DNA from: a bacterium
GTDB taxonomy: Bacteria > Patescibacteriota > Patescibacteriia > HK-STAS-PATE-3
NCBI GenBank assembly: GCA_043800725.1
Contig: JAZDMR010000034.1
Location: 4,374-68,373 of the forward strand
Length of the DNA: 64,000 nucleotides
Reading direction: 5' to 3'
Part shown: piece after piece, positions 28,259-64,000 of the stretch
How positions within the stretch are numbered: the stretch's first letter is position 1
Layout: the number at the start of each line of letters is the position of its first letter
The notes under the pieces: generated by a model
Databases searched by the model: none
What the model saw: only the letters and a program-made list of their open reading frames with translations
What the model was told of the DNA's origin: nothing
Made by a program: the position numbers and the translations under genes

Positions 28259-28280
28259 TTTTAAAGATACCAGCGCCAAA

Positions 28281-28351: not shown

Positions 28352-28367
28352 TAACATTCATGATATG

Positions 28368-44385: not shown

Positions 44386-44509
44386 GTTTCTGCTTTGTCT
44401 TTTTAGATTCGCCCCTTATATTTACGCTCAAGAAGCGCTGTTCTCAACGCTAATTTTTTATGGAAAAAATCAATAAAAGTATAACATATACTGACTGTTT
44501 CAGCAATCT

Positions 44510-44836: not shown

Positions 44837-44865
44837 TAATAAGTAACAGGCGTTATCAGATTGAG

Positions 44866-46259: not shown

Positions 46260-49200
46260 TTATTTCTTATCAGGGCCTGCTCCACTGTCCGGTTTCGGTT
46301 TTTTTTCATCTTCTTTGTCGCCCTTTGCTTTCTCCCCAATTTTTGAAGTGGGTTCGACGGTGGATTCCTGAACCGCGCTTACTAGCTTTCTCAAGAGCAT
46401 ACCGGATTCACGGAAATAATTCTTTTGCGATTGTTCCCCGCCGCCATAAAATTCCCGTCGATTACTTACGGACTGCTTGTTTTTCTTTATTTCTTCGGCC
46501 AGGGATTCAAGTTCTTCTTTTATTTTTGGCTCTTTCATTGACTTAGACAAATCTTCTATACTGTTTGCTATGGAATCCATCTGCCCGCTTACCTGATGCA
46601 GGGCGTTAGTAAGACCTTCTTCGTTCTTGGGCAATGAATCTGAAACTTTTTCTGACTCATCAGCCACTGTCGTTGCTTCGTTAATTATTTTATTATGGAC
46701 TTCAGTCCGCTCTACCTTATGCTCCTCTGGAACCGTAAACTCTGCCTTAACAGCGCCAATCCTTTCGCCCATATGAGCGGAAGATTTTGCCATTTGAACA
46801 TTTTTTACCACCCATTCTTGAGTGCCTTCTTCTTTATTTTTAGGATCTGGCACTAGGTAATCGGCACGATCGGCATTGCCGTGGAATTTATTTCGATACC
46901 ATTTTTGATATGCTATTGGACTAATTTCTTCTAACGCGGTAGCTCGATCGCGTGATTGCGCCTCTCTTATATCACTGGCTTCGTCTAGGGTGATATCATC
47001 GCCGGTTTTAAGCTTGTGCTCTTTTTGAATCCTTTCATGTTCCGCTTTATCCCCTCTATAAAAAGAACCAAATTTCGTAAATACGGCTTCATCATTAGTT
47101 ATATCCCCTTCAACTCCGAGCGTCTGATTTTTAATTCTGACTGCGGTACGGCTGAGTATACGCTCGGTCGCATCTTCTGCCATACTTAACTTCATTCGTC
47201 CAAGAACCGACATATTTTTATAGTCAGTGCTTATCTTGACTTCGCCATCGGTCAAAGAATTATACCTCGGTACTTCGGAGTGCGGGCTGGATTTCTCATA
47301 TACATGCTGAGCGCCCTGTTTTCTGAGTAATGTCATGGATGAAGCGGCAGCTTCGGGCTCGCTCATCACATAAGCAAAGGCTTCTTCTTCGTCATATTTG
47401 CCCCAGCGCTGTTCCACGTGGCCTCCGTTCTCAAGCGATAGCTCTCCCTGTGTTTCTAATTGCATGAGCTTGAACCTATCTTCAGTCCCGGCTTTTCTGG
47501 CATTGTCTCTGGTAGTCTCATTGGCTTTCTTAATGATCGGATCGATTATTGCCAGAGCCTTTTGCTCTTTATCAACATACGCTCTGACAAGCAAATCGTC
47601 CCAATCCTCTTCGGGGTGGATTTTTTTTAGCTCTCTCTGGGCCAATAGGTCGGGATCATATTTTTCTCGATCCAACTTTAAATAATCCATCAGCATAACT
47701 TTCATGTGGTGACCTGTTTCTTCATTATAATGCCGGTGGTCTTCTACGTCCGGATCAAAGCCATGTTGTTCCATAAGCCGTATTATTTCTTCTTCCGTTG
47801 CTTTTTTGTCTTTACCTTTTTTCGTAGCTTTAATCTCTCTTTTGATTTTATCTTGATTCCAGTCGTCAAAATTGCCATGCTTGACCCCGCTGATAAGTCT
47901 TCCTCCGCGATCTTCGATACCCTCATTACCGCCGGTTTTTTCAGCGGCATTCAATGCTTGGACAATTTTTTCCGTAGTCGGGTTCGACCCGAGAATTTTT
48001 TCACTTTCAGCATGATTGGTCATAAGCAAGTTCCTTCGGAATATTTCTTCATAGTCGGTGACCGAGCTTTTAGGTAAGTGGCCGAGGAACCGCTTATGAA
48101 AAGCGTCAATCCTTGTGCGTCCTTTAGCTTTCATCCAATCTTTAGTAATTTGTCCTCGTTCTTCGCCTCTGGCTTTTACTCCGCCCCAGAATTCCTTGGT
48201 CAGGTAGCTTAGCGGCATGGATTTGCCAATTTTAATTCCTTCCACGGCTTTTCGTCCGATAGCCCCGCCAGCCATTTTGACTCCGCCCCGAGCCGCACGC
48301 ATAGCCAGACGCGCTCCGGCCACGCCGCTCAATACGCCCGCGGCAGTTAACCCGCCGGTGCGGATCTTTTGCGACCAGTCGCCGGCGATCTTGCTGCCGG
48401 CCACGCCCAACTGCTGAGCCGCCTGAAGCGAGCCTAAGAGCAAGCCGATGGTAATCATATAGGTTAATAAGCGATCGGATTCACTAATCTTGCTTATGGC
48501 GGCTGACATGTTCATTGCGGTACCGCCGCCTGTGCCATAAACTTGCCCGATCACGGCTGAACCCTCGCGCTTACTTACCTCTTTGAACTCATACCTGGCA
48601 TCTGCCCCGGTAACTGAAATAATCGTCATTGACAGCCATAAAAAGAAAGCCATAACCGGACCGACCATAATATATTTATTAAATTCCCCCCACCACTGAT
48701 CTGAATACTTGGCCGTATTGGGAAAAACTCTGGTTAAAAAAGCTAAAGGCGAAAAAACAATTAACAGCCAAAGCATTATTACTCGGAAAATTAATGTTAT
48801 GGTCATAATCACGACCACAATCACGGCAATCATCAGCAGGGCGATCGCCAGCAGTACGGCAATGTATATCCCTGTTCCACTTACATCGCCGACTGAAGGA
48901 TTATCGGCCAAAGTAAGCATATTAGACATGCCTAAACCGGAAGCCAGGTTGCCGGCCGCCGCATCTTTGAAGCCGTTAACAAAAGTCAGCATGATCACCT
49001 GGCCTATATCAATCCAGAATCCGGCAATAAATTTGGAAAAGTTGATTAAAAAAGCGTAAATAATCAGCTTGCCCAGCAAGCGATTGTAGCGGTACTGCTC
49101 CAGCTTAAAAATCGTGCCAAAAGCGATAATCAGCAAAAACACAATAAAGAACATATTGCATAAGTCGCGAACAATCACCCAGCCTTTGACCACGGCAACG

Positions 49201-49457
49201 GCATTTATAAAATCATTATATTGAGCAACGGCAATCAGAATATTAACAATTATTATAAACAAATTGGCTAACATTTGGACTATCGGGTAGAGTATTCCAT
49301 TGATAAACCAATTCGTAACTGTATCCCCTGGCCCTGCCAAAACACTGCTCTGAGGAAACAGCAGCATACAGACAGCCAAACCGCAGGCCATAATCAGGCC
49401 AACCTGGGTAGGACGATGTTTTTTTATTAATTTTCCAATTCTTGCGAAGTTCTGCAT
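46260..49457 (-). CDS. VirB6/TrbL-like polytopic membrane protein (1065 aa) with a ~650-aa charged, coiled-coil-rich C-terminal extension.
   Basis: N-terminal ~400 aa carry 6-8 TM helices with TrbL/VirB6-like spacing. The remainder is strongly K/E/D-rich. Confidence 0.55.
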   Translation of the reverse strand: MQNFARIGKLIKKHRPTQVGLIMACGLAVCMLLFPQSSVLAGPGDTVTNWFINGILYPIVQMLANLFIIIVNILIAVAQYNDFINAVAVVKGWVIVRDLCNMFFIVFLLIIAFGTIFKLEQYRYNRLLGKLIIYAFLINFSKFIAGFWIDIGQVIMLTFVNGFKDAAAGNLASGLGMSNMLTLADNPSVGDVSGTGIYIAVLLAIALLMIAVIVVVIMTITLIFRVIMLWLLIVFSPLAFLTRVFPNTAKYSDQWWGEFNKYIMVGPVMAFFLWLSMTIISVTGADARYEFKEVSKREGSAVIGQVYGTGGGTAMNMSAAISKISESDRLLTYMITIGLLLGSLQAAQQLGVAGSKIAGDWSQKIRTGGLTAAGVLSGVAGARLAMRAARGGVKMAGGAIGRKAVEGIKIGKSMPLSYLTKEFWGGVKARGEERGQITKDWMKAKGRTRIDAFHKRFLGHLPKSSVTDYEEIFRRNLLMTNHAESEKILGSNPTTEKIVQALNAAEKTGGNEGIEDRGGRLISGVKHGNFDDWNQDKIKREIKATKKGKDKKATEEEIIRLMEQHGFDPDVEDHRHYNEETGHHMKVMLMDYLKLDREKYDPDLLAQRELKKIHPEEDWDDLLVRAYVDKEQKALAIIDPIIKKANETTRDNARKAGTEDRFKLMQLETQGELSLENGGHVEQRWGKYDEEEAFAYVMSEPEAAASSMTLLRKQGAQHVYEKSSPHSEVPRYNSLTDGEVKISTDYKNMSVLGRMKLSMAEDATERILSRTAVRIKNQTLGVEGDITNDEAVFTKFGSFYRGDKAEHERIQKEHKLKTGDDITLDEASDIREAQSRDRATALEEISPIAYQKWYRNKFHGNADRADYLVPDPKNKEEGTQEWVVKNVQMAKSSAHMGERIGAVKAEFTVPEEHKVERTEVHNKIINEATTVADESEKVSDSLPKNEEGLTNALHQVSGQMDSIANSIEDLSKSMKEPKIKEELESLAEEIKKNKQSVSNRREFYGGGEQSQKNYFRESGMLLRKLVSAVQESTVEPTSKIGEKAKGDKEDEKKPKPDSGAGPDKK

Positions 49458-49466: not shown

Positions 49467-52400
49467 TTAGGTGCCTAAAGGCTGTACTCTGACCTCAATG
49501 GGCGATCGGTAGTCAGAATTTTTCCAAGAAGGCGGGAAAGCCTGTAAACCGGCTCCGCAGTTAAAGTTTGAATAAATATCCGAATCAACACAAATACTAA
49601 ACCTGGGCTCGCACACCTGGCCAATCGGACAAGCATCTGACGTGCAATCCGCGCCTGATTCAAATGCGTCCGGTACTGCGTTGCACCAGCCCCAATTGTC
49701 CTCTACCACTATTCTGGGCTGGAACACGCAGGTATCGGTACTGACATCACGACATGGATAGCTCCGATCTGCGGGTATGGTTGAACATGTACCACCCGGG
49801 CAATCATCTTGAGACGTACAAACGTTTCCATTATTTGTTCCATTTTTGCAAAGCGTTTTACAAAAAGCAAGATCATCCCGGTAGCTGGTGTTGCAGAAAT
49901 AGCGATGGCTTAAGACATGGGGCGAGGCTGGATCGGCTTTTGGCGCATAGGGAAAGTAGATTGATTGCTGGTCTGTTTCATCCCAATTAATTAGAATTGA
50001 ACTCAACGGCTGCTGCTCCGTATCGGCCGTGGTATTGAACTTAAGCGTTACCCAGCTGCCATCTCGAATATCAGCTGTTTGCTGATCATTAACAGCTATG
50101 CCAAAAACATTGGGCCGGACTCCGCAATAGTCGGCTTCTGCCGCATTTGTATTGCGACTGCCGCGCTGATGTTCGATAGCGCATGAATCGCCGCTGCAAT
50201 TTCCACTTACAATGCAGGCCATGTTTGAGGTCTGGCAAGTTTTACACATAATATCCGGCGGTTCCCAATTATTAGTCCCGCTTACTTCATTGGTACTTAT
50301 AGGCTGGGACTGGTATTTTCCCAGCTCTGGATTCCATGTCCAGAAACCATAGCTCTGGGCAAACAGCCTTTGTACGTTATCCACTCCGATGCCCAAATCG
50401 TCATACCCTGCAGTGATACCTCCGCCACATTTATCTCCCTCAATATAAGTGCCGCATAACAGATCGCCCGTGTCTTCATCGCCACAATCCCCATCATCAC
50501 TGCAGTAGCACCAGGCTCCGGATATCTCACACTGCCACTTGTCGCGATAATTGTATACTTGAGCGCCTTTATTGCTGAGAGCCCCGCCAATACAAATGTC
50601 ATCCGGATTGGTAGCTGAACAGCAATCTTCAATGTTGCCGGTCGGACATGTATTAGCAGTAAAGTCATAATTTGCCGAACAGCCTTTCAACGAAATAGAA
50701 CAGGTCCCAACACCGCTACACACGCCTTGCTGGCCGTCTGAAGACTTGCAATCACTGGCTAAGCGACATATTTTGCCGTCTTTGACTCCCCCGCCAATAC
50801 AAATCCTTTCAGAGCAATCTCCTTTGCAGGCTGCTGGCAACCCTGCTCGCGTTTGATAGGGAAAAGTGAATAATTCATTGTCGCGCGGCGCTTCGATAAA
50901 CAGCAGCTCGTTCCAAGTGTCTGTATCGCTTGATAGGGTAACCGAACCGCCAAACGGCGACAGGTCAGAGGTCCTTGTATAGTTTGATACTCTGGTCTGA
51001 TATCCGCTACCGATTGATAAGCGTCCGGACCAGGCTTTGTTAGTTCCGTCATCGTTAACAACTTTAACTATCTTATTGCATCTTTCTCTTAATACATACT
51101 CAACTCGAGCCACCATTCCACCATTGGCACCTGATTCATCGCAGCCGTATAATTGATAGCCTTGAAGAATTCCATTGGCATTAAAATCAGCCCTGACATC
51201 AAATTCATTATTACCATAAGCAAACGTAGCAGAGTTATGCCAGCCATTTGATTCATCCAGGACAATGGGACCGAATTCCCAGTCACCATGAGTCCATTCT
51301 ATGGCTCTTATTACTATCATAGATATTTCATTTTTCTCATATTGATCTGCTATCTCAACCGGATAATAACCATCATCATTTGGTCCGCCAAAGGGACCGT
51401 CACCATTACATGAACCAAACAAAGCATTTTCATTACACCCATATATTAAACTTTCTGATCTGCCTTCCGCGCTGGCGTCATAACCGTAAATCAAGCAACA
51501 TCCTGGTTCATTCTGGATATACCCCTCCATGGTAGTTCTGCCCAATTTAACTCCTTCAACTTCAAATGAATACTGTTCCCATTCACAAGGCGTACAACGG
51601 TTTTGATTAAGATCGGCTTTACATCGATATCGAGCGGTGTCCACTTGATCGCCTCCCATTACCCCTTCAGCCTCCATACAGAAATACAAAGGCGTCCGGT
51701 CGTTATAACCCGCTTGGACTTCCGATCCGAAGGTGCCGAAAATATCCGTTTCTCCGCCGATAATGTCAACCGGCCACCAGGAAATGCATCGATCAGTGAA
51801 CTTGGAATCTTTTTCCAGGCAGTATCCGTACCAGCCTTTGTATTGAATGCCGGATTCATCTCGGTATTCGCACAACAAAGAGTCTTCTCGGGGAAATAGC
51901 CGGCAGGACCGGTTTACATATTCGACAATCGGATTTTCATTGGATCCGCCTATTCTTTGAACTCCTAAAACGATTCTGATAGACACGTCATCAATAAAGA
52001 ACGGCTCCGTACTGCCACCGGTTCTGACAAACTGCAAGCTAGCCGTACCGCCCGAAGCTTTGATTGGCTTGGTTATTACGGTCTGCCAGCCGGTAGTCAG
52101 TATTAAATTTTTATCATAATATTGAGAGCCATCCGGTGAGAATAAGCGGGGCCGGACTTCCTGGTTGTCAGGAGTTGATGATTTTATTTTAAATGAAAGA
52201 TAATACTTGGCATTTTCCAGGGTAGAAAAGGATACCAGGGGAGCTTGCGCTCCAGAATAGGCGTCCAACAAGCAAGTGCCTCCTCCTAAACAGGCGGCGT
52301 TGCTGCTACATAAATCGCCTGAATTGGTGCCTCCCTCGCAAACCGGCTGTGAATCAGTCGGATCTATCTTTAAAATATGATTCGGGCTGTTTTGATTTGA

Positions 52401-54113
52401 GGGATCCTCGGCAATCACCATTATTACCGGAGAGGTATTGTCTGATCCGCGCCGTCCAATTGCTTTCCAGGGTTTAGCGGTATATTCAGTTCTGGTCTTC
52501 TGAGTACCGTCCTCGTTAACAGTGGTAATCGCTTCCCTCTGCTCAAAATTTTCATTGCCAATGTTCACGACTGAACCTTCCTGGGGCATATAAAACCAAG
52601 GGAAGTTGCCTTCATAAGAGCCGCTTGGCCATAAATCATTGGGGATATGGCCGGTAGTCCAAGTCAAGCCGACATTAATCGCACCGCTTAAGTAGCGGAT
52701 CTTCTGGATATCATCAGGCGTCTGATAAGTAACATTGGGCGGATAAAAATTAACGCAGGTGCCTAAATCGGGCGCGCATTGATCATTATTGGTACACGGT
52801 TTAAAATCAAATATTCCATCATCTTCTTCCGGGGAACTGCACCACTTACCCGATGTGGGATAGCAAAGCGGGACATCGCAATCAGCTCCGCTTTCGCAGA
52901 AGCGCAAAGGATCGCCGGCGCAATATTTGCCAAACAGCGGCTTGGAGCAGTTGCCGTCAGGACCCAGGGCGGCACAGGCCGACATGTCATAGCATAGTGA
53001 TTCAGTCTGCTTGGTTACCGGATTTTTCACTTCTGTTTGGGTGCGGCAGGTCATCCATTTATTGCAGACGCGGTCTTTTTGGACTTTCAGTACAGTGTTA
53101 GCGTTGCACTTGATCCAGCTCACATAGCAGCCCGGACCGGCCGGCTCCATAAACACTCCGTCTTCATTATAGCAGCTGGGGGGATTGCACTGATAAGCGC
53201 TTATGCCTGAAGTCGGATCGTCTGTACAGGCCCCGCCGTTCCGGCAAGTCTCACCTACCTGGCATTCATAGCCGCATAATTCACAATTCAGCGTTAATCC
53301 TCCGGGCCCGCAATAATAGCCATACTCATTGCATTGATTTATGGGCGTACCGTCTTCTAGGCATACGCCAGGAGTAAAAGTATGATCTTCAAAAGTATTT
53401 CCAGTCTTGAAAGACAGAGGACCATAACTGGCCAAGTTGTTCTCAATGTCAGTCAGCTCAATGGTATAGCCATAAATACTGGAGGCTTGTAAGGACGGCG
53501 CGCCCGGACCAAAGTCAGCCGGATATGGGACACTAAAAGACTGGCCGAAAACTTCGCCCGAATCCGCAGAAAAACCGTCTCCGAGCAAGCCTGGCGCAAC
53601 GATTGTGATAACATATTTGGCATCTTCATTGGTGGCAAAGTTAAACATAGCTGAACAGCAGTTATTATTTACACTCAAATCAATGATCCTGGGCGGATTA
53701 TCATCAGAACCCCCTCCGGCTGGCGTCCAAAACTGAAGTACCGGCCCCCAAGTGCGTTCTGATTCGTCCTCTGAATCCAGCTTGGAACCTACCCGGTATT
53801 CATAGGGCGTGTTGGGGATAAGGGGCTCCATGGGCAGACTATGATTTATCACTAAATCAATTGATGATACGACTTCATTCAAACCAAAACCCAAAATACC
53901 ATAGCGGACCTTGGAGTCAGCGGCTTGGTCCGTGGTCCAGGCAGTAACAGCCCTCTCCGAGGTCCTCTCGATAATTCTGATATCCGAAAGATTGACCACG
54001 CCAGCCAAGGCCTGTTGCCCGCCGCTGATCAAAATAACCGCCACAGCAACCGCAAACAAGCTGGCTAATTTCCAGTTTTTTTTCTTCCGTATTGTCCGCT
54101 TTTTTTTCTTCAT
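49467..54113 (-). CDS. Giant secreted Cys-rich protein (1548 aa) with an N-terminal FN3 (PAP-N-like) domain.
   Basis: Signal peptide (LASLFAVAVAVILISGGQQALA). FN3 pattern VTAWTTDQAADSKVRYG...PYEYRV. Dozens of Cys residues in CxxC and CxxxxC arrangements. It starts 10 nt before the VirB6-like gene. Confidence 0.7.
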   Translation of the reverse strand: MKKKKRTIRKKKNWKLASLFAVAVAVILISGGQQALAGVVNLSDIRIIERTSERAVTAWTTDQAADSKVRYGILGFGLNEVVSSIDLVINHSLPMEPLIPNTPYEYRVGSKLDSEDESERTWGPVLQFWTPAGGGSDDNPPRIIDLSVNNNCCSAMFNFATNEDAKYVITIVAPGLLGDGFSADSGEVFGQSFSVPYPADFGPGAPSLQASSIYGYTIELTDIENNLASYGPLSFKTGNTFEDHTFTPGVCLEDGTPINQCNEYGYYCGPGGLTLNCELCGYECQVGETCRNGGACTDDPTSGISAYQCNPPSCYNEDGVFMEPAGPGCYVSWIKCNANTVLKVQKDRVCNKWMTCRTQTEVKNPVTKQTESLCYDMSACAALGPDGNCSKPLFGKYCAGDPLRFCESGADCDVPLCYPTSGKWCSSPEEDDGIFDFKPCTNNDQCAPDLGTCVNFYPPNVTYQTPDDIQKIRYLSGAINVGLTWTTGHIPNDLWPSGSYEGNFPWFYMPQEGSVVNIGNENFEQREAITTVNEDGTQKTRTEYTAKPWKAIGRRGSDNTSPVIMVIAEDPSNQNSPNHILKIDPTDSQPVCEGGTNSGDLCSSNAACLGGGTCLLDAYSGAQAPLVSFSTLENAKYYLSFKIKSSTPDNQEVRPRLFSPDGSQYYDKNLILTTGWQTVITKPIKASGGTASLQFVRTGGSTEPFFIDDVSIRIVLGVQRIGGSNENPIVEYVNRSCRLFPREDSLLCEYRDESGIQYKGWYGYCLEKDSKFTDRCISWWPVDIIGGETDIFGTFGSEVQAGYNDRTPLYFCMEAEGVMGGDQVDTARYRCKADLNQNRCTPCEWEQYSFEVEGVKLGRTTMEGYIQNEPGCCLIYGYDASAEGRSESLIYGCNENALFGSCNGDGPFGGPNDDGYYPVEIADQYEKNEISMIVIRAIEWTHGDWEFGPIVLDESNGWHNSATFAYGNNEFDVRADFNANGILQGYQLYGCDESGANGGMVARVEYVLRERCNKIVKVVNDDGTNKAWSGRLSIGSGYQTRVSNYTRTSDLSPFGGSVTLSSDTDTWNELLFIEAPRDNELFTFPYQTRAGLPAACKGDCSERICIGGGVKDGKICRLASDCKSSDGQQGVCSGVGTCSISLKGCSANYDFTANTCPTGNIEDCCSATNPDDICIGGALSNKGAQVYNYRDKWQCEISGAWCYCSDDGDCGDEDTGDLLCGTYIEGDKCGGGITAGYDDLGIGVDNVQRLFAQSYGFWTWNPELGKYQSQPISTNEVSGTNNWEPPDIMCKTCQTSNMACIVSGNCSGDSCAIEHQRGSRNTNAAEADYCGVRPNVFGIAVNDQQTADIRDGSWVTLKFNTTADTEQQPLSSILINWDETDQQSIYFPYAPKADPASPHVLSHRYFCNTSYRDDLAFCKTLCKNGTNNGNVCTSQDDCPGGTCSTIPADRSYPCRDVSTDTCVFQPRIVVEDNWGWCNAVPDAFESGADCTSDACPIGQVCEPRFSICVDSDIYSNFNCGAGLQAFPPSWKNSDYRSPIEVRVQPLGT

Positions 54114-54198
54114 AACTGACTAATAATTATACCTTATTTATCACCCAACCAATAACTTTTTAATTTTTAATTCGTGATTACTATTGGGCAGTTATTTC

Positions 54199-57100
54199 CT
54201 AGCCCCCGCACTGTCCGCAGTTCAAGCCCGCATCACACGACTCGGCCATGAAATGGTAGGTCTGGCCGGATTCTAGAGGATCATCAGAACCACCGATAGT
54301 GATCGCGTGCTCAGTTACGGGCGTGTTTTCAATCTTCGCCTGGCAGTAGTAGCACAGGGGACCCATCTGGCCGTTGGCGCAGTAGCCGTTGCCAATACAT
54401 TTGCCACAGGTACCGAGCGCAGTGCCTTCATAGCAATAGTAAATCCTGGAATCAGACGCTTCATTGGTCGCCCAGGTCATAGTGGCCCAGTTACTGCCCC
54501 ACTGATACTCCAATCCGGTACAGATCGGGGCGGTCGAGTCGTTCAGGACATTAATGGTAATGCTGTCTTGGCCTGGGTTTTGAGAGGTATCTTTGGCAAT
54601 GGCGGTTAAAGTGTGGTTGCCGTTGCTGACCGAGCTGGTGTTCCAGCTCTGTTCGCAATAATAAGGCGCGCAGCCGGGCGGATTGGTATCGGTGCTGATG
54701 GAAGTGCCGTCAACCAGGAATTGGACATCGACAATGCCCACGTTATCAAAAGCTGTTACTTTGAGAGGAATGGTGCCGGAAACTGTTTGTCCGTCAGTGG
54801 GGTCAAACCAGCTGACTTCCGGAAACTCATTGTCGTCAAATGACTCGGTATGACAGACGCCCGGGGGTATGGGAAAGCGGCCGGTGCAATTACCTGATTG
54901 GTCGCAAGACTCTACCTGGTAATAGTAGTCTGCGCCTTCTTGCAGTCCGGACTTGGTAACCAAGTGGTTAATTATATACCCATCTCCTTCGACCTCGGTG
55001 CTGCCGGGAGGCGAAGTTGTGCCATAGTAGAGAGTGCCGTCAGCCGGCTCATCCGTGGTCCAGTTTACTGTGATACTGCCTACGCCGGGCAAGCAAACTA
55101 CTGAGGCCGGATCAATGACTGGCGGATCATTGTCAGTGTCACAGCCTACGACTTTGAAATTTATTTGAGCTTCGCGGTAGTCGTCCGGAGGACCGACAAC
55201 CTGGTCATCCCGCCCTTTGGCGTCAGCTTCGTATTGCTTACACTCGGCAGATCCGCCTGCCAAGACAACCACATTAACGTCAACCGTGCCATCCGGCGGC
55301 GGAGTAACGGTAATTATATCCGAATCATTATCAACAAACCACACGATCACTCCTTGCCACTCATTAGGATAATTCGGAAACATATCTTCGATCGTCATGC
55401 GCACCGGTTCATTAAAGCCATTAATCGAACGGACTTGAACGTCCCAAATACGGCTGCCGCCCTGACTTATATTATAGTATATCCAATCACTGTCAGAGTG
55501 GAATACTTCAAAATCCGGCTGCGGCTCTTCTTCTATTATCAATTCAACAGTGGCAAAATGCGTTTGAGTTAATGGGAGGTCAGTTCCCACGCCTTTAAAG
55601 GTTAGAGTGTAAGTATCCGGCGGCGCGTCTGCAGAAATATTAATAGTCACAACCCGATCAGTTCCGGGATTTGGACTGGGTGTGATATTATTGGGCAGAC
55701 TGGCCGTGGTAATTTTATCTGACTGGTCGCCTTCATCGTCTCCCCAGACTTGGTCTAAGGTTACGTTCACGGGCCAGTTATAAACCGGGATTGTTTCACG
55801 CAAAGTAAGGGTATAATCGACCGAGCCGCCCAGCTCGCCTTCTTGAGAAAGCGGATTTGCCAGAATTTCATAATCAGGGGAATCGCCAACCACCAGCGTA
55901 AGATTAATATAGCGGGTTCGATTCCAGCTCCCGTCCTGGCCCGAGGCCTTCACTTGTATGGTATAGGTGCCTATGGCCAAGCTGGCATTAGTGGTAACTG
56001 TCAGGGTCGAATCGCCCGAACCGTAAGGCGACGCTTTCAGGCTGGCTGTAGAAAAATTTAAGCTGGTGATATTGCCGCCATGATTCGGAATGATTGAATT
56101 GATGGACAGATTAATGTCGAAATTGTACACAGGAGTCGTTTCCTGGAGATGAAGCGGATAAGTTGCGCCACTGCCCGGCTGAATTGTTTCCTGTGAATCA
56201 GCTGAACTGATCGCGAAATCCGGCCCATCAGCAACAATCAATTGAAAGTAAACCACTTGATAAGTACTGGTTCCGATCTTATTGGCGCGCGCGCTTAAAT
56301 CATAGGTATCGCTGACCAGATTGGCCGTATTGATATTCAATGTCAGATTCTGTCCTGGTGCGGACGGAGGAACAAACTGATTGTCGTCTGCCCAGCTAAA
56401 ACGAGTCGCTGGAATGTTGTCACGAGCATACCGTTCGGCCAATACTTCAGAGCTCCAATTATTAAACCCTGTCAGGTTAAACGTGAATTGTGCTTGTTCT
56501 CCTTCATATACAGTCAGGGGCGAATCAGACACTAAAGAAAACTCATAGTAAGGCGCCTCATATATTAGAGTAATGGCATCATAACCATAAAGCCCAATAT
56601 TATCTTTTGCTCGTGCTTCAATAATATTTTCTCCGGGCTGAAGAGGTATTGATGGTCTTGACCAGGTAGCAGTACCCGAAGCTAATAACCAAGTTCCATT
56701 ATTCACGCGAACGTGAACCTGTGAAATACTGCCGTCCGGATCCGAAGCCGTGCCCGAGATTGTAACACTGTCGTTATCCACGATCTCTCCGTCTTCATGG
56801 GAGGTAATATTAATGGTAGGCGGCTGGCCCCGATTGACCACAATCTGCTTAAAGCCCACAAAGCCCGTGGCATCCTCCGCCTCGACCCGGATAGTATTCC
56901 CGCCCACATCCAAAGAAATGGTTTTTGGCCCCCAGCCGACGTTCTGGCTCGAGGTAATATCAATAGGTTGCCAGGCTCCGCCATTAACCTGAACCCGCAT
57001 AGGGTTGTCGATATTATTGTCAGCATCCGTGGCCGTACCGCTCAGATTGATGGTATCCGTATCCACTTGCTGGCCGTTGGTATGGCTGATGATATTCACG

Positions 57101-58773
57101 ACCGGCGGAGCGCCTCGATAAACATTAATAGAAGTAACGGTTGATTGGGAATCGTTATCTGTGGCCTTGGCTTGCAACTGATACGATCCGTAAGAAGAGA
57201 ATGTTTGGCTTTTATCCCAATTATCAAAAGCCCAGGCGCCGCCTCGGTTGGTGGCATTGCTATAAGCTTGGTTTGTGCAAGTGCCCAGACAGGCGCGCAC
57301 TCCGACAGTATCAACGTGTCCGTCATTATCCCCGGCTCGTCCGACGACCAAATACGGACTGGTCGTAATTAATCCGTTATTTACCGGATCAGTAATGGAA
57401 ATATAGGGCGGTACTAATGCGGTGGTGGTAAAAACTTTATCCCCGGAATCAACGCAGACAAAACCATTGCATGACCTCACCTTGTAGTGATAAGTAGTAT
57501 TGGGATTCAGTCCGGTTAACACTCTGCTGTGATCCGGAGACATTGTCGCGCTGCTAACGTGTGTTCCGTAAGCAGTGGTTGGCCCATAATAAACATGGGT
57601 ATCTGAATCCGTATTTGTAGTCCAGCTGATAGTGGCGCTCCGCGGCCCGATCGGATTGGCAGTCGGACCGGAAGTGATGGCTAAATTTGCTTCGTCAGCA
57701 AAGTCATACTTGGTTACCTGCCCGGACGAATTCCGATGAGTTACCCAGATAGAGTCTCCTACTAATTCCAAGCGCATAGGAGGGCCGGCGGCAGAAGTAT
57801 CCGCAATTCCTGTTTGTACGCGCTCGTATGTTTCAGTATTCCATCGCCGGACAACAACTGTATTATTATTATATTCAACTAAATCATAGATACTTTCTTC
57901 TTCATCATAAACAGCATCGCGAATAGTGGCTGAGGCTTGCTCAAAATAGACCGTGGTGAGTAAATCTGCCGGGTCATATACGCGTATATCAAAATAATTA
58001 TGTCCGAAAATCCATACTTTTTCACCGTCCCATATGCTGACTCCCGGATAATCAACATTGACATAATTAAACGAAGTGGAACGGGAATCAATCAATTCAA
58101 GAGTTTGTAGATTGAGAGTTTGTCTTACAAGTTTATATTGATAATTTGATGGCTGTCCGGGAATATGGGTGGTAGCGGCAACAAACAGCGTATTATTATC
58201 GATTGCGTGTACGCCAAATGGATCATAATATAAAGTAGCAGAAGGATACTGATATTCATCCAATAGATTACCTGACTGATCTATCTTATATATTTCACCA
58301 GCGGGCTGCGTTCCGGATTTCCCATAATATCGATTAGACATCTTGCGACTGAATTCATCCGCGTCATATTCAGGAGATGAGCTTCCTGTCTCTCCTCCTC
58401 CAGGATAATATTGGACATCGTCTCCTAAAATACGGATTATCGCGGAAGAATTATTCCCGCTCATTTTTCGCACCCAGATGTATGATCCATCCCAGTGAAT
58501 CGGCCCGGGTACGAAATCCGCCGGCGGATTAATTGTCTTGGTAACGCTGCCATTAGAAGGATTAACCCGCTTAATAACATGATCTTGAGCGCTTGAAAAC
58601 CAAACCGAAGAATTATCATAGGCCACATACGCCTGCTCGACGCCCAGATTATAAACCGTTTTTGTCAGGGCCTGAGCCGGCGCAGTCCACCCCAGTACGC
58701 TAACAACAACCAATATAGCCACGGCGCAAATAAATGACGCGCTGGTAAGTTTGAAAATTTGTGGCTTGGTCAT
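54199..58773 (-). CDS. Giant secreted protein (1524 aa) with at least three FN3 (PAP-N-like) domains and Ig-like repeats.
   Basis: Signal peptide (FICAVAILVVVSVLGWTAPAQA). FN3 motifs ATISWTTNTDSDTHVYYGPTTAYG...YHYKV, ITVNWTTDEPADGTLYYGTT...YYYQV and ATMTWATNEASDSRIYY. Repeated ~90-aa Ig-like segments (NIISHTNGQQVDTDTINLSGTATDADNNI and NITSHEDGEIVDNDSVTISGTASDPDGSI). Confidence 0.7.
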   Translation of the reverse strand: MTKPQIFKLTSASFICAVAILVVVSVLGWTAPAQALTKTVYNLGVEQAYVAYDNSSVWFSSAQDHVIKRVNPSNGSVTKTINPPADFVPGPIHWDGSYIWVRKMSGNNSSAIIRILGDDVQYYPGGGETGSSSPEYDADEFSRKMSNRYYGKSGTQPAGEIYKIDQSGNLLDEYQYPSATLYYDPFGVHAIDNNTLFVAATTHIPGQPSNYQYKLVRQTLNLQTLELIDSRSTSFNYVNVDYPGVSIWDGEKVWIFGHNYFDIRVYDPADLLTTVYFEQASATIRDAVYDEEESIYDLVEYNNNTVVVRRWNTETYERVQTGIADTSAAGPPMRLELVGDSIWVTHRNSSGQVTKYDFADEANLAITSGPTANPIGPRSATISWTTNTDSDTHVYYGPTTAYGTHVSSATMSPDHSRVLTGLNPNTTYHYKVRSCNGFVCVDSGDKVFTTTALVPPYISITDPVNNGLITTSPYLVVGRAGDNDGHVDTVGVRACLGTCTNQAYSNATNRGGAWAFDNWDKSQTFSSYGSYQLQAKATDNDSQSTVTSINVYRGAPPVVNIISHTNGQQVDTDTINLSGTATDADNNIDNPMRVQVNGGAWQPIDITSSQNVGWGPKTISLDVGGNTIRVEAEDATGFVGFKQIVVNRGQPPTINITSHEDGEIVDNDSVTISGTASDPDGSISQVHVRVNNGTWLLASGTATWSRPSIPLQPGENIIEARAKDNIGLYGYDAITLIYEAPYYEFSLVSDSPLTVYEGEQAQFTFNLTGFNNWSSEVLAERYARDNIPATRFSWADDNQFVPPSAPGQNLTLNINTANLVSDTYDLSARANKIGTSTYQVVYFQLIVADGPDFAISSADSQETIQPGSGATYPLHLQETTPVYNFDINLSINSIIPNHGGNITSLNFSTASLKASPYGSGDSTLTVTTNASLAIGTYTIQVKASGQDGSWNRTRYINLTLVVGDSPDYEILANPLSQEGELGGSVDYTLTLRETIPVYNWPVNVTLDQVWGDDEGDQSDKITTASLPNNITPSPNPGTDRVVTINISADAPPDTYTLTFKGVGTDLPLTQTHFATVELIIEEEPQPDFEVFHSDSDWIYYNISQGGSRIWDVQVRSINGFNEPVRMTIEDMFPNYPNEWQGVIVWFVDNDSDIITVTPPPDGTVDVNVVVLAGGSAECKQYEADAKGRDDQVVGPPDDYREAQINFKVVGCDTDNDPPVIDPASVVCLPGVGSITVNWTTDEPADGTLYYGTTSPPGSTEVEGDGYIINHLVTKSGLQEGADYYYQVESCDQSGNCTGRFPIPPGVCHTESFDDNEFPEVSWFDPTDGQTVSGTIPLKVTAFDNVGIVDVQFLVDGTSISTDTNPPGCAPYYCEQSWNTSSVSNGNHTLTAIAKDTSQNPGQDSITINVLNDSTAPICTGLEYQWGSNWATMTWATNEASDSRIYYCYEGTALGTCGKCIGNGYCANGQMGPLCYYCQAKIENTPVTEHAITIGGSDDPLESGQTYHFMAESCDAGLNCGQCGG

Positions 58774-59034
58774 GGTGGTGATGTTAGTTGATGATTGGTA
58801 ACTAGTAGTTACGAATTATTTAGTTACTTATTTAATGTATATTAATTATGTTACTTTCTTACTGACTTTTCCGCCTGAGGCGGATGCGCCTATGGCGCAA
58901 GTCAGGTTGTTAATTAATGCGCCTACGCTGCTCCCTACTGCACTCGCCTGACAGCAAAGTTGTTGGCGGGCAGGAAAGTGATTTTGAAGCTACTAGTAAT
59001 TGCTATTTATTAATTAATAATTGATAACTTTTTA

Positions 59035-62000
59035 TTAGCCTCCAATAAAATTAGTAATTGGATTAGCTGTATCGTAAAAGGGCTGACAGCCGATTTCAAA
59101 GTCGATCAGCGAACCGCATTCGGATACCTGGCTTGTTAAACTCTGCCTAAGAATGTAATAAGGCTGACAGCCGGGCCGGCCCGCATCGCTCGTGCCATAA
59201 GGCTGGCACTCAGGGCCGATTTCCAGATAGTTGCCTTTTTCATCCAAATGCAAAGTACAGTCAATATTACAGCCTTCAGAATAACGAGGCTGTTTGGGCG
59301 GATCTAGCGGGTCTCTAAACTCGGTACATCCCGCTGCTCCGGCATTGCACTGGCCTACCCAATAATTCGAGCAAGTAGCCACCGGGTCTCCGCAATCAGC
59401 GACCTCACAACAGTCATCATCAGTTCGGCAAGCGTAACCATCAAGAGGTCCGCCCGCACAAGTAACACTCGGTCGGCCAACTGATGGTACGGCTACGCAG
59501 ACTCCATTATTTTCCGGAACCGAAATCAAATTATGACAGTTGTTTTGATCGGTATTAATCGATCCTGAATGACGTCCGTCGCAATATGGCCGTGCTCCGC
59601 CATCGCCGCACTTACCCACGCTGCAGACCCCTCCCCCTAGTTCACAGTCCTGATCACTGTCATTTATAAGGCAGCTCTGGCCATTTTCCGGACCGCCCTG
59701 ACAAATATTGCCGCAATCTCCGTTATTCAAACACTGCTTGCTTTGATCAGCGCCGCCGTTGCAGGTGCCGGCGCAAACTAAACTGACTTCTTTTTCCTCG
59801 CCATCATAAGGATAGGCAATACAGTATCCTCCGGAAATCAAGCAGGCTTTTTGTTCTTCTACGGTCCGGCATAATTCACCGGCCAAGGCTCCGCCTCGGC
59901 AGGTCAGAGAAACTGTAGGACAGGGGTCATTGGTCCCGCTTATAAACCAACCGTCAACCAGCAGGCCTGATTGGGCTGCCCCGGTTCGATATTCACACGT
60001 ACGATTCCCAGGATCTCTGAAATACGACTGTGCTCCGGTAATCTCCTCGGTATATTCCGCACACCATAGTTCATCCGGATGACAAGCGCTGAAACTGTAG
60101 GTATCCGGATCATTGATCAAGTTAGCTGCTGACCAGTCTTGGACTTGATTATCCTTATCTATGACCGGCAAGCCAAATTCTTGGCAGCCTTGATCGTCGG
60201 CCCGGCAGCTGTATTTTGGTGAATTAACAAAACCGAGGGTGGTATCGCCGGGAACCAGGAATTCGGGATCCTCGTGTATCTTCTGAACAAAAGGATAATC
60301 TGAATTTTGGGTATAGGTGAAAGCCTCGCAGCCTACTGCGCGATCAGCGCACAGGTTGCTAAATGAAGTTATGGCAATAGGCTTATTATTTCGATCAATA
60401 TAAAGCGAGCAACCGGCATAGGCCGCTTCACAGCTGGTCTGGGTTCCTTTAATTTTAAAGATGCTGTCTATCGACTCAATAATGCTAATATTATCAATCC
60501 ATCCGCCCGGCAAAGTGCTGGTAACCGGAGTAGTGAATTCAAAAGTAAACACTGATGACGGCGGATCTGCGAGAAAATTCAAATAAACCGGCCCTAATTC
60601 ATATTCAGCCCATTCTGAAGTTACTGTTACGACCTGGCTGGGAACCTCGTTGCCAAACTCATCACTGATCCGAAAAGCCAACTGTCCGCCCGGATCACGG
60701 GGCTTGTACCAGAATTTAACGCCGTAGCTGTTGCCGTTGGAAATTGATTCAGACAGATCTATGCTGAATATCGTATCCTTAGTCGTGCGCATCGAGTGTC
60801 CGCCGGCATTGACTGACTCGTTGGAATAGCTGACACCGCCGACCCAGTCGCCGATGGTCCCGTTTTCAAAAGTATCCGAATAAATTGACCTGGTACTGCC
60901 GGCGGTCGTGCCTTTGTATTGCCGGCAACCGGCGGCTGATTCAGAACATCGAACGGCCTGGCTGGGAATTATCTGATAAATGTTATCAATCCCGGCTTGA
61001 GCGTCAATCGTATTGCGATACGGGTGGCAATCGTCAGACACAAAAATAGTCCTGGATTTCAATCGATAGAAAACTTCTCCATTATCGCCAAAGTACTCCG
61101 TACAGTCAGGATTAATGCCGATATCGGTGATTAAACAGGTCGCGATATTTGCTGGATCATCTTCGCAAACAGGATCCGTGATAGTGCTGCCGACTGATAG
61201 ATTGGTACACGGAGCCGTGCCTGTTTCCGGAAGCAGCGGACCCCCCTCGTCTGGGTCAAATGCCGTATTGACCAGATTGCTTTTTAGTAATTTGAAAGCC
61301 CGGAGCTGATAGCCGCTGTCCTCACTGCCTTCCCAAGTATAGAAATTGGCCGCATTGGGATCCGACGGCTTGACGCACTGCCGAATCTTAAGGAAGTACT
61401 CTTTTTCTTCGCCGCCCGAGCCCTCTATATCCAGATTGGTATATTCTTCGCAGCCTACCTGTGAAACACTGCATTGATTGCCAGATGACTCAATGAAATA
61501 AACCGGATCAATGACGGGCCGATCGGGAACTCTTTCGATGGGCATTTCCCTAAACTGCCGGCAGCCGACTTGGCTGTTGGGGCAGATATCCGAAGGAAGG
61601 ACAATTCCGCTAACCGATGATCCCAGGCCGATCGGGCGATATCTTTCACAGCCCACCTCGCCTTTGGTGCAGATAAGCGGACTTTCGGTAACCTTGAGAT
61701 TATCGCACCAGATACTGCCCGAGCCGTCAGCCTGAATGCCTCCGATATCAGAAGCCACGTTGTAGCAAAGAATTTTCACAAAACCGATATCCGGATTATT
61801 GGCCGTGATATTGAATCGTACTGGGGTCCAGTCTTGCGCGCCCAGGACAGCGAACTGATTATCCCCGTCTTCCACGGACGGCCTGATGTGGGTTTCAAAG
61901 TTGGCCAGCAAGCACTCGCTCGGCTCATCAGCCGGTGGGAAGAAAACATCATAAGCATCCGGCTGGTCTGGGCCGTAAACGCACTCGGTGACGATGGCGC

Positions 62001-64000
62001 CGAATGGCTTATCGCCCCCATTCGCGTCTAAATTCGTCTTAATCATGCCGCTGACCTCATAAGTCTTGCCGAATTCGACCGGAACCAGCTGCTCCGCGTA
62101 CAGGCGATTATTCGCCGTCGTAAGCTTTAAGGAAGTGGAATCAAAATAACCCAGGGTTTTATCAATCTCGGATATTCCGCCGGCTCCGAGCGCCCAGCCG
62201 TCAGGAATCAAATCATCAGCCGAAGAATTATCTTGGTCAGCTGGCGCGGGATATGAGAAAAAGTCAGTACCGTCGTCCAGGCTAAAGTCGCCGTTGGACA
62301 TCAGGGTGGTTTGATCGATTTTCAAAGATACCTCGTTAACAGTCTGATAATCAGTATAGCCGGTTAGCGTGTCGCCTATCTCAAGCTTGGCGCTGTCAAC
62401 AAGGGCGGAACATCCGGGAGGAGTATTGATATAAGCTATGATCCTTGAGTCTGTATAAACAAGTTCTGGAATATTGAAAGTCGCACTTAACCTTTGCCAA
62501 TCATCAGTATAATTGGCTGGCGGTTCATCAGCCACGCCCAGAGTAAATACTGTATCAAAGCTTTGCAGCCCAAAGCTGCTGTTACATGCGCCGCCAGTGC
62601 TTTTTCCATAATAAGAAAAAGTGACTGATAACCCGGACAAACTCCGATAAGTATCAAAAATATGTTCAATTCTTGTGCCGCTGGCACCTGATAACTGCAG
62701 TGAAGTGGAGTTGGGTGAGCCCACGCCGCTGGTATCTGTACTGATGGCCAATGTCTCAACTAAATTGCTGGAAGCCCGCCAGCCATCACAAACATAGGGT
62801 GAACCGCCACAATCAGCATTGGTCAAGCAGGCATTGCCATTCTGGCTGCAATATCCGAAGGTATCAGCCACAGCATCATCAGCCTCTCCGGAATAATATT
62901 CAAATCCGGCATTTTTCAGAACATTGGAGCCGTTTGAAGTGCGAACCAATTCTGTGCAGTCCACGGCGCTATCATTGCAGGACCGTACGTCACGGTCAAA
63001 GAAAAATTTATCACCGCTGTCTTCTCGGCAGTTCCAACTATTATTTACGTCATTATAACCATAATCAGAGCAATACCATTTACAACCGGCGTTTTCGGGA
63101 CTGCAGTCCCCTGAATCCAGGGTATCTTTCAGATAATAATTTTTAACGCCCAAAGCGTCAACATAAGTCCGGCAAGACGAATAATAACCAGGGCATTCTT
63201 CTCCGCCGAATCGCCAGATGGGCTTTTCTTCAAAGCAATAACCAAAAGCCAGACAATTGCCCCGTTCGTCTTCCTTTATGCAATTGGGCTCATCCACGCA
63301 AACTTCCGGATTGCGGGCGATTGTCCAGCTGCCGATATCGCCGCCGCCAATATCACTGGGACTGCAGTTATTCTTGCCGTCGCCATTGGTATCCTGATCA
63401 CAGTTAAATTGCCGGCTGATAATTTCATCGCCCGCGCCCTGCCTGCGGCAATAAGTCTCCGGAGCCTTCAATACCCAGGCAGGATCAATCAAGCCGCAGA
63501 AAGGCGAGGCTAAGAAATTATCAGGATTGAAAGGATCTACTATGCCGTGCTGAGCATCTTGTCCGCACCAGTCATATAAATCAATCAGTTCCTGCAAACC
63601 ATAAGCTTGCTGATCAGCATCTCGGATATGAATCGCGGCCAGCTCCCAGCCTACCGGGACGACGCGGTATTTGCGCAAATAAACAATGCTCCGATAGGGT
63701 ATGCCGGTCTCTGCTTCAACATTTGACTCATCAAAACCAAATGTCTTATTGCCGTTAATCAGGCCGTTTTCAATGGCTTCGCGTAATGTCATCTTATCGT
63801 CAATCGCCTGCCTGAATCCTGAATCAATAATGCCCGTAGATACCAGACGGTCGCTTACCGCTATGGTCGATTTGGCCGGATCGCCGGTACGATAGTCCAC
63901 TCTGGCCAAGCTAGAAAACTGCAAGCGGGCCGCGGCAATGCCCCTGGGCGCATTGGACCCGAATAAAAGACCTCCTAAGCGCGACTCGGTAGCTGACGGT
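59035..64000 (-). CDS. Giant Cys-rich protein (>1650 aa); its N-terminus lies beyond the right window edge.
   Basis: The reading frame stays open to position 64000; the ORF track begins at an internal TTG at 63924. Extremely Cys-rich C-terminal third (CAGTCNGGADQSKQCLNNGDCGNICQGG...CELGGGVCSVGKCGDGGARPYCDG). Confidence 0.7.
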   Translation of the reverse strand, partial: PSATESRLGGLLFGSNAPRGIAAARLQFSSLARVDYRTGDPAKSTIAVSDRLVSTGIIDSGFRQAIDDKMTLREAIENGLINGNKTFGFDESNVEAETGIPYRSIVYLRKYRVVPVGWELAAIHIRDADQQAYGLQELIDLYDWCGQDAQHGIVDPFNPDNFLASPFCGLIDPAWVLKAPETYCRRQGAGDEIISRQFNCDQDTNGDGKNNCSPSDIGGGDIGSWTIARNPEVCVDEPNCIKEDERGNCLAFGYCFEEKPIWRFGGEECPGYYSSCRTYVDALGVKNYYLKDTLDSGDCSPENAGCKWYCSDYGYNDVNNSWNCREDSGDKFFFDRDVRSCNDSAVDCTELVRTSNGSNVLKNAGFEYYSGEADDAVADTFGYCSQNGNACLTNADCGGSPYVCDGWRASSNLVETLAISTDTSGVGSPNSTSLQLSGASGTRIEHIFDTYRSLSGLSVTFSYYGKSTGGACNSSFGLQSFDTVFTLGVADEPPANYTDDWQRLSATFNIPELVYTDSRIIAYINTPPGCSALVDSAKLEIGDTLTGYTDYQTVNEVSLKIDQTTLMSNGDFSLDDGTDFFSYPAPADQDNSSADDLIPDGWALGAGGISEIDKTLGYFDSTSLKLTTANNRLYAEQLVPVEFGKTYEVSGMIKTNLDANGGDKPFGAIVTECVYGPDQPDAYDVFFPPADEPSECLLANFETHIRPSVEDGDNQFAVLGAQDWTPVRFNITANNPDIGFVKILCYNVASDIGGIQADGSGSIWCDNLKVTESPLICTKGEVGCERYRPIGLGSSVSGIVLPSDICPNSQVGCRQFREMPIERVPDRPVIDPVYFIESSGNQCSVSQVGCEEYTNLDIEGSGGEEKEYFLKIRQCVKPSDPNAANFYTWEGSEDSGYQLRAFKLLKSNLVNTAFDPDEGGPLLPETGTAPCTNLSVGSTITDPVCEDDPANIATCLITDIGINPDCTEYFGDNGEVFYRLKSRTIFVSDDCHPYRNTIDAQAGIDNIYQIIPSQAVRCSESAAGCRQYKGTTAGSTRSIYSDTFENGTIGDWVGGVSYSNESVNAGGHSMRTTKDTIFSIDLSESISNGNSYGVKFWYKPRDPGGQLAFRISDEFGNEVPSQVVTVTSEWAEYELGPVYLNFLADPPSSVFTFEFTTPVTSTLPGGWIDNISIIESIDSIFKIKGTQTSCEAAYAGCSLYIDRNNKPIAITSFSNLCADRAVGCEAFTYTQNSDYPFVQKIHEDPEFLVPGDTTLGFVNSPKYSCRADDQGCQEFGLPVIDKDNQVQDWSAANLINDPDTYSFSACHPDELWCAEYTEEITGAQSYFRDPGNRTCEYRTGAAQSGLLVDGWFISGTNDPCPTVSLTCRGGALAGELCRTVEEQKACLISGGYCIAYPYDGEEKEVSLVCAGTCNGGADQSKQCLNNGDCGNICQGGPENGQSCLINDSDQDCELGGGVCSVGKCGDGGARPYCDGRHSGSINTDQNNCHNLISVPENNGVCVAVPSVGRPSVTCAGGPLDGYACRTDDDCCEVADCGDPVATCSNYWVGQCNAGAAGCTEFRDPLDPPKQPRYSEGCNIDCTLHLDEKGNYLEIGPECQPYGTSDAGRPGCQPYYILRQSLTSQVSECGSLIDFEIGCQPFYDTANPITNFIGG

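Follow-up and report, generated by a model that had tools for sequence, protein, structure and literature searches.

Giant cysteine-rich exported proteins encoded at the head of a type IV secretion operon in Patescibacteria

Several type IV secretion systems (T4SSs) are encoded together with large exported proteins that engage another cell. TraN of F-type T4SSs is a Sec-exported, cysteine-rich surface protein of ~600 aa with ~22 conserved cysteines; it is an outer-membrane protein of diderms, stabilizes contact with the partner cell, and is co-encoded with the plasmid thioredoxin-fold proteins TrbB and TraF (disulfide oxidoreductase/isomerase). In Enterococcus, the pCF10 plasmid encodes, with its T4SS genes, the large exported adhesins PrgB, PrgA, and PrgC, which mediate cell-cell contact; PrgB is not disulfide-rich. 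CagY of the Helicobacter pylori cag T4SS, a protein of ~1900 aa with Cys-containing repeats, contacts the host cell and is a VirB10 homolog with transmembrane (TM) segments from a diderm. Here we describe three consecutive large genes, whose products we call A, B, and C, in a 64,000-nt stretch of the genome of an ultra-small bacterium of the Patescibacteria (the window: contig JAZDMR010000034.1 of assembly GCA_043800725.1, positions 4,374 to 68,373), and the T4SS operon that they head.

The pCF10 T4SS belongs to the mating-pair-formation class FATA (MPF-FATA), the same class as the system of Patescibacteria (PMC12102498). In the sole genetically tested species of Patescibacteria the T4SS is essential for epibiotic growth (PMC10633639), and its role in the phylum has been called 'completely unknown' (PMC11665869). 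A phylum-wide survey of 2025 reported no adhesin such as PrgB in Patescibacteria T4SSs and found homologs of VirB8, VirB9, and VirB10 to be largely undetectable, with few VirB8 (PMC12102498). With no adhesin in the survey and the role of the system unexplained, the literature leaves a slot open for a host-contact part. T4SS-linked adhesins as a kind are already known, as are large Cys-rich exported proteins from candidate phyla radiation (CPR) bacteria: Anantharaman et al. (2016) described in Peregrinibacteria a cluster of 14 genes, annotated with integrin and FG-GAP terms, whose products carry signal peptides, average ~1650 aa and ~7% Cys, and were proposed to serve in attachment; that genome has one disulfide-forming enzyme, and no link to a T4SS was reported (PMC4736985).

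The C and A proteins, which together are referred to below as the giants, may be compared with each of these. Like TraN, they would combine a T4SS-encoded, Cys-rich exported protein with a dedicated disulfide enzyme; unlike TraN, they are 5–6 times larger, have ~90–200 Cys, belong to a monoderm-type system, and include modules of the carbohydrate-binding module (CBM) type and a novel N-terminal domain, and no Pfam match relates the two by sequence. From PrgB they differ in lacking sequence similarity, a C-terminal LPXTG anchor, and any Pfam adhesin match. They share with CagY very large size and linkage to a T4SS, and no similarity to it was detected. Their likeness to the Peregrinibacteria proteins is one of description: both are large, Cys-rich, exported CPR proteins. 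Finally, their CBM-type parts have the β-sandwich fold of CBM4, CBM9, and CBM22 of glycoside hydrolases; in contrast to the latter, no catalytic domain is attached, and the modules are embedded in disulfide-rich non-enzymatic proteins.

Two halves of one giant protein

The three open reading frames (ORFs) lie on the minus strand, at the coordinates that a preliminary description of the window had given, and each exceeds 1500 codons:

49467..54113, minus strand: protein A, 1548 aa, 83 Cys (5.4%, odd)
54199..58773, minus strand: protein B, 1524 aa, 23 Cys (1.5%); mature chain 22 Cys, even
59035..>64000, minus strand: protein C, open at the window end; C-terminal 1654 aa in the window, 81 Cys (4.9%)

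Full-length C was taken from the matching-sequence contig JBDRPK010000004.1 (locus L005; metagenome-assembled genome GCA_043827125.1), where its gene occupies L005:3578-9739 and encodes 2053 aa with 91 Cys (4.4%); ~399 N-terminal residues, including the signal peptide and most of a novel N-terminal domain, thus lie beyond the window end. Extreme Cys content had been claimed for all three proteins. This holds for A and C and fails for B, and the anticipated 'dozens to over a hundred' Cys per protein come to dozens, with a maximum of 91. Elsewhere in the window, ORFs have a mean Cys content of 1.2%; for cytoplasmic proteins, among them ClpB, RecG, and VirB4, the value is 0–0.3%.

A, B, and C are all acidic, and in a TM scan each has one hydrophobic stretch, at the N terminus, that ends in an A-x-A site; a second TM segment, a C-terminal anchor, and a C-terminal LPXTG are absent from all three. 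From the signal-type segment and the A-x-A site, read directly from the sequence, we conclude that the three proteins are most likely exported via Sec. An internal LPETG occurs at C residue ~1318 (window position ~61240); no hydrophobic segment follows it, and it is probably not a sortase signal.

In most lineages the position directly upstream of virB6 is held by a single ORF of 2400–3800 aa. C aligns with the N-terminal two-thirds of this single-chain form and A corresponds to its C-terminal third; residues 336–1478 of A are colinear with residues 1990–3015 of protein P0035 (3053 aa; E=3e-60). By these alignments, C and A are separated halves of one widespread protein of ~3000 residues, a relation that the preliminary description had missed. 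In the window's clade the protein is split at one conserved point with B in between, an arrangement found only there, and A, once split, has acquired a signal peptide of its own, a pair of FN3 domains, and a segment with 12 Cys. A 2040-aa protein at L033:14971-21090 has a B-like Ig-repeat region fused to an A-like region. Together with the single-chain C-A forms, this fusion therefore connects A, B, and C. We infer that B serves as a spacer built of FN3 and Ig domains and specific to its lineage. The N-terminal domain is the most conserved part of the giant; distal parts are variable, with lineage-specific CBM and 4-Cys insertions, and some family members add dockerin, PA14, or TSP1. That A and C might be paralogs was rejected, as BLASTP of A against C gave no homology beyond a short 4-Cys mini-module. 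This module, C-x-G-G-x3-G-x2-C ... C ... C, is common to A (aa 592-614, 1105-1138, 1422-1443) and C (aa 1766-1792, 1832-1858, 1913-1942); it is present in some homologs only and resembles a mobile two-disulfide insert.

The Cys richness of the giants is not due to chance, as 50 of the 83 Cys of A are kept in at least 10 of 12 homologs, at identities down to 26%, and 44 of the 91 Cys of C in at least 26 of 32. Spacing of the CxxC, CxxxC, and CGDG kind, which had been thought typical, proved rare (3, 3, and 0 occurrences in A; 0, 4, and 1 in C). The dominant spacings are C-x5-C (14 in A, 6 in C) and C-x6-C (8 in A, 19 in C). In C, the latter forms a repeated hairpin motif, C-x4-[VA]-G-C-x2-[FY], in ~10 copies; all 32 homologs have most of these Cys pairs, and at least 24 have the others. 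Neither A nor C matched the Myxococcus-type cysteine-rich repeat of NCBIfam at E<=0.1.

The number of Cys residues follows a parity rule, tabulated here for partly overlapping sets:

A family, split: 12/12 odd
C family, split: 23/23 odd
C family, fused: 9/9 even (mature chain)
139 further representatives, at least 2150 aa: 94/102 even
139 further representatives, 1500-2150 aa: 15/19 odd
GTDB loci, split C: 25/25 odd
GTDB loci, A: 6/6 odd
GTDB loci, fused: 32/40 even

When pooled, split halves are odd in 66/66 cases and fused proteins even in 135/151, and the rule holds while Cys counts span 35 to ~200. In 19 fused proteins the homologous split point could be placed by the landmark C..C..LLKVxxDRxC; both sides of it are odd in 16. 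In the A alignment, Cys are gained and lost four at a time. All other exported proteins of the window have an even mature Cys count, as follows:

Pilus-side cassette (seven proteins): 32, 22, 6, 14, 18, 12, 16
B: 22
377-aa pilin protein: 16
SLT-pilin fusion: 14
DsbA: 4
416-aa protein: 2

On the simplest reading, the parity rule means that almost every Cys takes part in a disulfide and that a single disulfide crosses the split point. C and A would accordingly be expected to form a covalently linked heterodimer of ~3600 residues, joined by one inter-chain disulfide. Independently split lineages share one homologous split point and so place no constraint on where the crossing disulfide lies. The Cys of these proteins are dense on recount, and parity supports their pairing; sparse, unpaired residues were the alternative that the preliminary description had named.

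Domains recognized in A and C are of the binding type:

53394..53981, minus strand: two FN3 domains at the N terminus of A (aa ~45-240), DCC/neogenin FN3-pair profiles, E=2e-4
51954..52556, minus strand: CBM4/CBM22-type β-sandwich in A (aa ~520-720), from AlphaFold2 (AF2) and Foldseek
60598..60888, minus strand: CBM_4_9 β-sandwich in C, PF02018, 38.7 bits (cut-off 25.9), E=1.6e-9

This FN3 pair is a feature peculiar to A that the single-chain form lacks; its Pfam Pur_ac_phosph_N scores of 22.8–27.3 bits are under the cut-off of 30, and matches to PDB FN3 profiles support it. The sandwich is the main confident part of the AF2 model of A, with a predicted local distance difference test score (pLDDT) of 70–87. 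Foldseek aligned it with CBM4-2, CelK CBM4, CBM22, CBM11, and CBM16 (E ~1e-6, TM-score to target 0.6–0.74), and a PDB sequence search gave a weak match to CBM4-2. C contains a second, weaker CBM_4_9 copy within 62317-62919. In B, Pfam detected Big_7 Ig-like domains in three stretches (87.8 bits, cut-off 24.1), in agreement with the tandem Ig-like repeats described earlier, which a self-BLAST of B did not resolve. Glucodextran_B and Y_Y_Y also scored above threshold in B, as did Pur_ac_phosph_N (54.2 bits, cut-off 30) and fn3 (30.4, cut-off 25), and the N-terminal region that follows its signal peptide is propeller-like. At least three FN3 domains had been assigned to B; Pfam found two, both PAP-N-like, at aa 376-448 and ~1233-1290, the second weak, and a third, C-terminal one is visible by eye only and undetected by Pfam. 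The FN3, Ig, and CBM4/9 β-sandwiches agree with an earlier view of these proteins as surface-interaction proteins. Searches of Pfam, NCBIfam, and PDB sequences matched A and C to no enzyme family, the polysaccharide lyases of the contrary case included.

The N-terminal domain of C, ~565 aa long, Cys-poor, and located directly after the signal peptide, is marked by the motifs AEDTA-W-ASAGTGQKPLF, R-x-x-R-[IV]-x-P-[VL]-G-W-E-[LI]-A, and LVDPxWVLKAP. Searches of Pfam, NCBIfam, PDB sequences, and folds gave it no match, or for folds no significant one. AF2 predicted it, at low confidence, to consist mainly of long helices. Mean pLDDT was 57 for C residues 36–600 and 51 for A residues 241–1440; beyond the CBM-like sandwich, confidence was reached only in a few short segments of A and in one small sub-domain of C, and neither the Cys-rich regions nor the helical domain gave an assignable fold. 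The top fold match of the helical domain, the α-pore-forming toxin MakA, is non-significant (E=0.94) and was discarded as evidence. The Lipocone superfamily was also weighed for this domain; the giants of that paper are from Omnitrophota, and no link was found.

Linkage of the giant genes to a T4SS operon

A long string of minus-strand genes that ends before radA begins with the three large genes for C, B, and A, with gaps of 262 bp between C and B, 86 bp between B and A, and 10 bp between A and virB6. The three genes are the head of a T4SS operon and not a free-standing repertoire, a point absent from the preliminary description. A terminator and promoter scan yielded nothing above chance, and no terminator-like site was found on the operon strand, the A-virB6 gap included. 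The genes that follow are, in order of transcription:

46260..49457, minus strand: VirB6-like polytopic membrane protein, 1065 aa; ~8 TM segments in aa 1-285 and a Cys-free hydrophilic tail
43006..46245, minus strand: three Cys-free proteins (459, 108, 459 aa), position kept in L003, L006, and L009
42493..42999, minus strand: PrgI/VirB3-like protein, Pfam PF12666, 36 bits
41805..42503, minus strand: TrsD/TraC-like protein, kin to the VirB4 N-terminal region; NCBIfam TrsD E=1.8e-7, PF26593 on record
39824..41836, minus strand: VirB4 ATPase; Pfam P-loop_TraG 106.7 bits, AAA_10, DUF87
38387..39803, minus strand: two small proteins (197 aa with a TM segment; 277 aa), no family match
37234..38367, minus strand: VirB2-like T4SS pilin-domain protein, 377 aa; PF18895 35 bits, 16 Cys in the mature chain
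35927..37177, minus strand: 416-aa membrane-anchored protein, conserved directly before DsbA
35289..35927, minus strand: membrane-anchored DsbA-type oxidoreductase; Thioredoxin_4 92 bits and DSBA, CEFC (C69-E-F-C72), N-terminal TM segment
34096..35292, minus strand: fusion of T4SS pilin and SLT lytic transglycosylase (VirB1-like); SLT 56 bits, T4SS_pilin 31.6 bits

This operon is a monoderm-type, MPF-FATA-like T4SS as described for Patescibacteria (PMC12102498). Its PrgI/VirB3, TrsD, and virB4 genes are adjacent and overlapping, and the pilin-SLT fusion is its last gene, followed by radA. The VirB6-like protein scores 18.2 bits with Pfam TrbL/VirB6, under the cut-off of 25.9; its homologs carry a weak TrbL match on record. 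The 459-, 108-, 459-, and 416-aa proteins matched no Pfam or NCBIfam family. No relaxase or coupling protein is present among the Pfam-annotated ORFs of the 64-kb window. The block of 416-aa protein, DsbA, pilin-hydrolase fusion, and RadA is kept in three relatives (L090, L091, and L092; DsbA identity 46–51%), which supports a link of DsbA with the disulfide-rich exported proteins; the idea that a DsbA of the same operon fits their folding was therefore well placed.

A word-indexed homolog search returned only 12 relatives of A and 32 of C. The resulting impression of a rare family was an artefact of the word index, as profile and motif searches gave far more: a motif scan of the one-genome-per-species GTDB collection confirmed at least 578 matches to the N-terminal domain of C, and an exhaustive profile search recovered the domain in 1537 clusters at 50% identity, 1123 of them with E<=1e-30. 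It always occupies residues ~30-600 of proteins that are mostly 2400–3600 aa long. C was the query of both family alignments, A2 (32 proteins) and A3. Relatives are labelled Kerfeldbacteria, Falkowbacteria, Nomurabacteria, or 'Patescibacteria group'. Many third-party annotation (TPA) assemblies with this Patescibacteria-specific locus are titled 'uncultured Gammaproteobacteria bacterium' (L010, L013, L019, L022, and others), and Zixiibacteriota- and Pirellulales-labelled matches occur on contigs of 1.6–4 kb; these labels look like mislabelling or mis-binning rather than true spread.

Gene order in 80 retrieved species-level loci is KsgA, a ~270-aa TSP3-like protein (up269), the giant gene or genes, and the VirB6-like gene; up269, C, B where present, A, and the VirB6-like gene follow one another also in L003 and L006-L009. 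The VirB6-like gene comes next after the giant in 40 of the 42 loci that reach at least 3 kb past it, with a gap of <160 bp or an overlap in 29 of these 40. Of the two remaining loci, one is an annotation gap and the other, L057, has T4SS pilin/SLT genes instead. KsgA is present in 63/80 loci, and the giant-virB6 junction is kept where the KsgA neighbourhood has been lost (L074, L077, L079, L085, and L086). The up269 protein, an acidic membrane protein with TSP3-like Ca-binding repeats encoded just past the window end (L005:2762-3571), directly precedes the giant gene in 75/80 loci; Pfam and NCBIfam gave a weak TSP3 match only. It could tether the giant protein to the membrane.

Candidate roles of the giants

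On balance, we think it probable, if not firmly so, that the chromosomal MPF-FATA-like T4SS of this patescibacterial organism, probably a member of class ABY1, has in C, B, and A its extracellular module on the host-facing side. The reasons are the position in the operon, the conserved linkage to virB6, the C-A fusion, the Cys parity, the CBM modules, and the conserved DsbA. In such a module, the co-operonic membrane DsbA would oxidize ~87 disulfides in C and A after export, and the single odd Cys of C would pair with that of A, restoring the single-chain architecture. B would supply FN3/Ig spacer domains. The resulting rigid, glycan-binding assembly could then dock the T4SS and pilins onto the host-cell envelope, a role that would be analogous to that of mating-pair-stabilization adhesins in conjugative systems. 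Attachment to a host cell, which the preliminary description had suggested as one example, may be the function of A, B, and C.

We found no account in the literature of the giant family and its N-terminal domain, of its near-universal position before virB6, or of the fission and parity evidence; the available part of the supplement to PMC12102498 shows no CBM_4_9, PF16656, or Thioredoxin_4 near virB4. The family would thus be a concrete, testable candidate for the host-touching part of the T4SS in many hundreds of species, and the best candidate yet. The parity rule predicts, from primary sequence alone, near-complete disulfide bonding and a covalent heterodimer arising from gene fission. The same rule could offer a fast way to screen other exported proteins that are split for inter-chain disulfides.

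Several points weigh against assigning C, B, and A to the host-facing side of the T4SS. A physical tie of the giant protein to the system is predicted from its genes, and housekeeping synteny is conserved as well (KsgA in 63/80 loci, Sua5, the major facilitator superfamily (MFS) gene, and the leucyl-tRNA synthetase (LeuRS) gene), so that gene order may partly be a matter of general colinearity. Parity is evidence that the Cys pair but does not name the partners; instead of joining each other, the odd Cys of C and A could stay free, bind a metal, or be bonded to some third partner. Sixteen of the 151 fused proteins break the even rule, possibly through errors of ORF start or assembly. The hallmark N-terminal domain of C has no recognizable fold or family, the AF2 models are poor, and a CBM-type fold predicted in A or C would not prove glycan binding.

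On a second reading, which we consider unlikely, the giants would be general surface or envelope proteins, such as an S-layer-like coat or glycan harvesters, merely syntenic with the T4SS. KsgA, Sua5, MFS, and LeuRS are conserved to the same depth; the CBM modules would suit glycan scavenging; a second cassette of large exported proteins by pilMNO indicates that the organism spends much coding space on surface proteins generally; and the large Cys-rich exported proteins of Peregrinibacteria were reported without a T4SS link (PMC4736985). The giant-virB6 junction is nevertheless tighter and more persistent than the KsgA junction (40/42, often overlapping or <40 bp). It survives the loss of KsgA, T4SS pilin/SLT genes follow the giant in L057, and no terminator separates A from virB6.

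The location next to virB6 could also mean that the giant is a structural part of the channel, a wall-spanning stalk or cap that replaces the missing VirB8, VirB9, and VirB10, and not an adhesin. Homologs of these three are largely undetectable in Patescibacteria (PMC12102498), and docking to the machine would suit the Cys-poor N-terminal domain, which comes right behind the signal peptide in each of the 1537 clusters and is better conserved than any other part of the protein. Set against this are the variable distal parts, the size range of 2400–3800 aa, and the dockerin, PA14, and TSP1 additions, all typical of surface binders, together with the absence of any TM segment beyond the signal peptide. 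We regard a channel role as clearly unlikely.

A more speculative proposal, very unlikely in our estimate, would make the C-A giant, led by its helical N-terminal domain of unassigned fold, the outer half still missing from an import-type T4SS: a rigid probe, stapled by disulfides and guided by glycans, for docking on the host envelope. The probe would perhaps open the envelope, a VirB6/VirB4 translocon would pull in host nucleic acids, and the C-A inter-chain disulfide would act as an assembly or release switch. The comF, recG, and radA genes flank the operon.

Least probable of all is that the giants are secreted offensive effectors (toxins or lytic factors) with the helical N-terminal domain as a membrane-active or enzymatic warhead, since the long helices, the non-significant MakA match, and an invariant Glu, two Arg, and Trp in R-x-x-R-[IV]-x-P-[VL]-G-W-E-[LI]-A that could mark an active site are countered by the lack of any significant toxin or enzyme family match, the lack of an adjacent immunity-type gene, and the nature of the gene itself, which is single-copy, syntenic, and vertically conserved rather than a polymorphic cassette.

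Other features of the window

Three further genes flank the T4SS operon:

25938..26642: comF (ComFC-like)
29571..31628: recG
32658..34001: radA

In class ABY1, T4SS loci typically also hold comF, recG, and radA (PMC12102498). The presence of ComFC-like, RecG, and RadA proteins on the flank is a hint of a DNA-handling role.

A further cassette of surface proteins, the second in the window, is linked to type IV pili and lies on the same strand:

4135..19591, minus strand: seven consecutive signal-peptide proteins of 273-1195 aa (PQQ_2 β-propeller, PAP-N FN3)
926..4046, minus strand: pilM, pilN-like gene, and pilO, directly downstream of the cassette

Across the window, ~30 of 64 kb codes for large exported proteins, close to the half that had been estimated. 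Cys use is bimodal, with 0–0.3% in cytoplasmic proteins (many of them zero) and 1.5–5.4% in exported ones, which suggests that this organism reserves Cys almost wholly for extracytoplasmic disulfides.

Three tRNA genes, tRNA-Ser(GCT), tRNA-Ser(TGA), and tRNA-Arg(GCG), lie at 26983..28443 on the plus strand; the window has no further Rfam matches. Outside the window, the LeuRS gene upstream of the operon carries an inserted Ser_hydrolase (α/β-hydrolase) domain, a NUDIX domain, or both, according to locus:

L005:1-12 and upstream: both inserts (1366 aa)
L007:2859-6443: hydrolase only (1194 aa)
L009:2665-5628: NUDIX only (987 aa)

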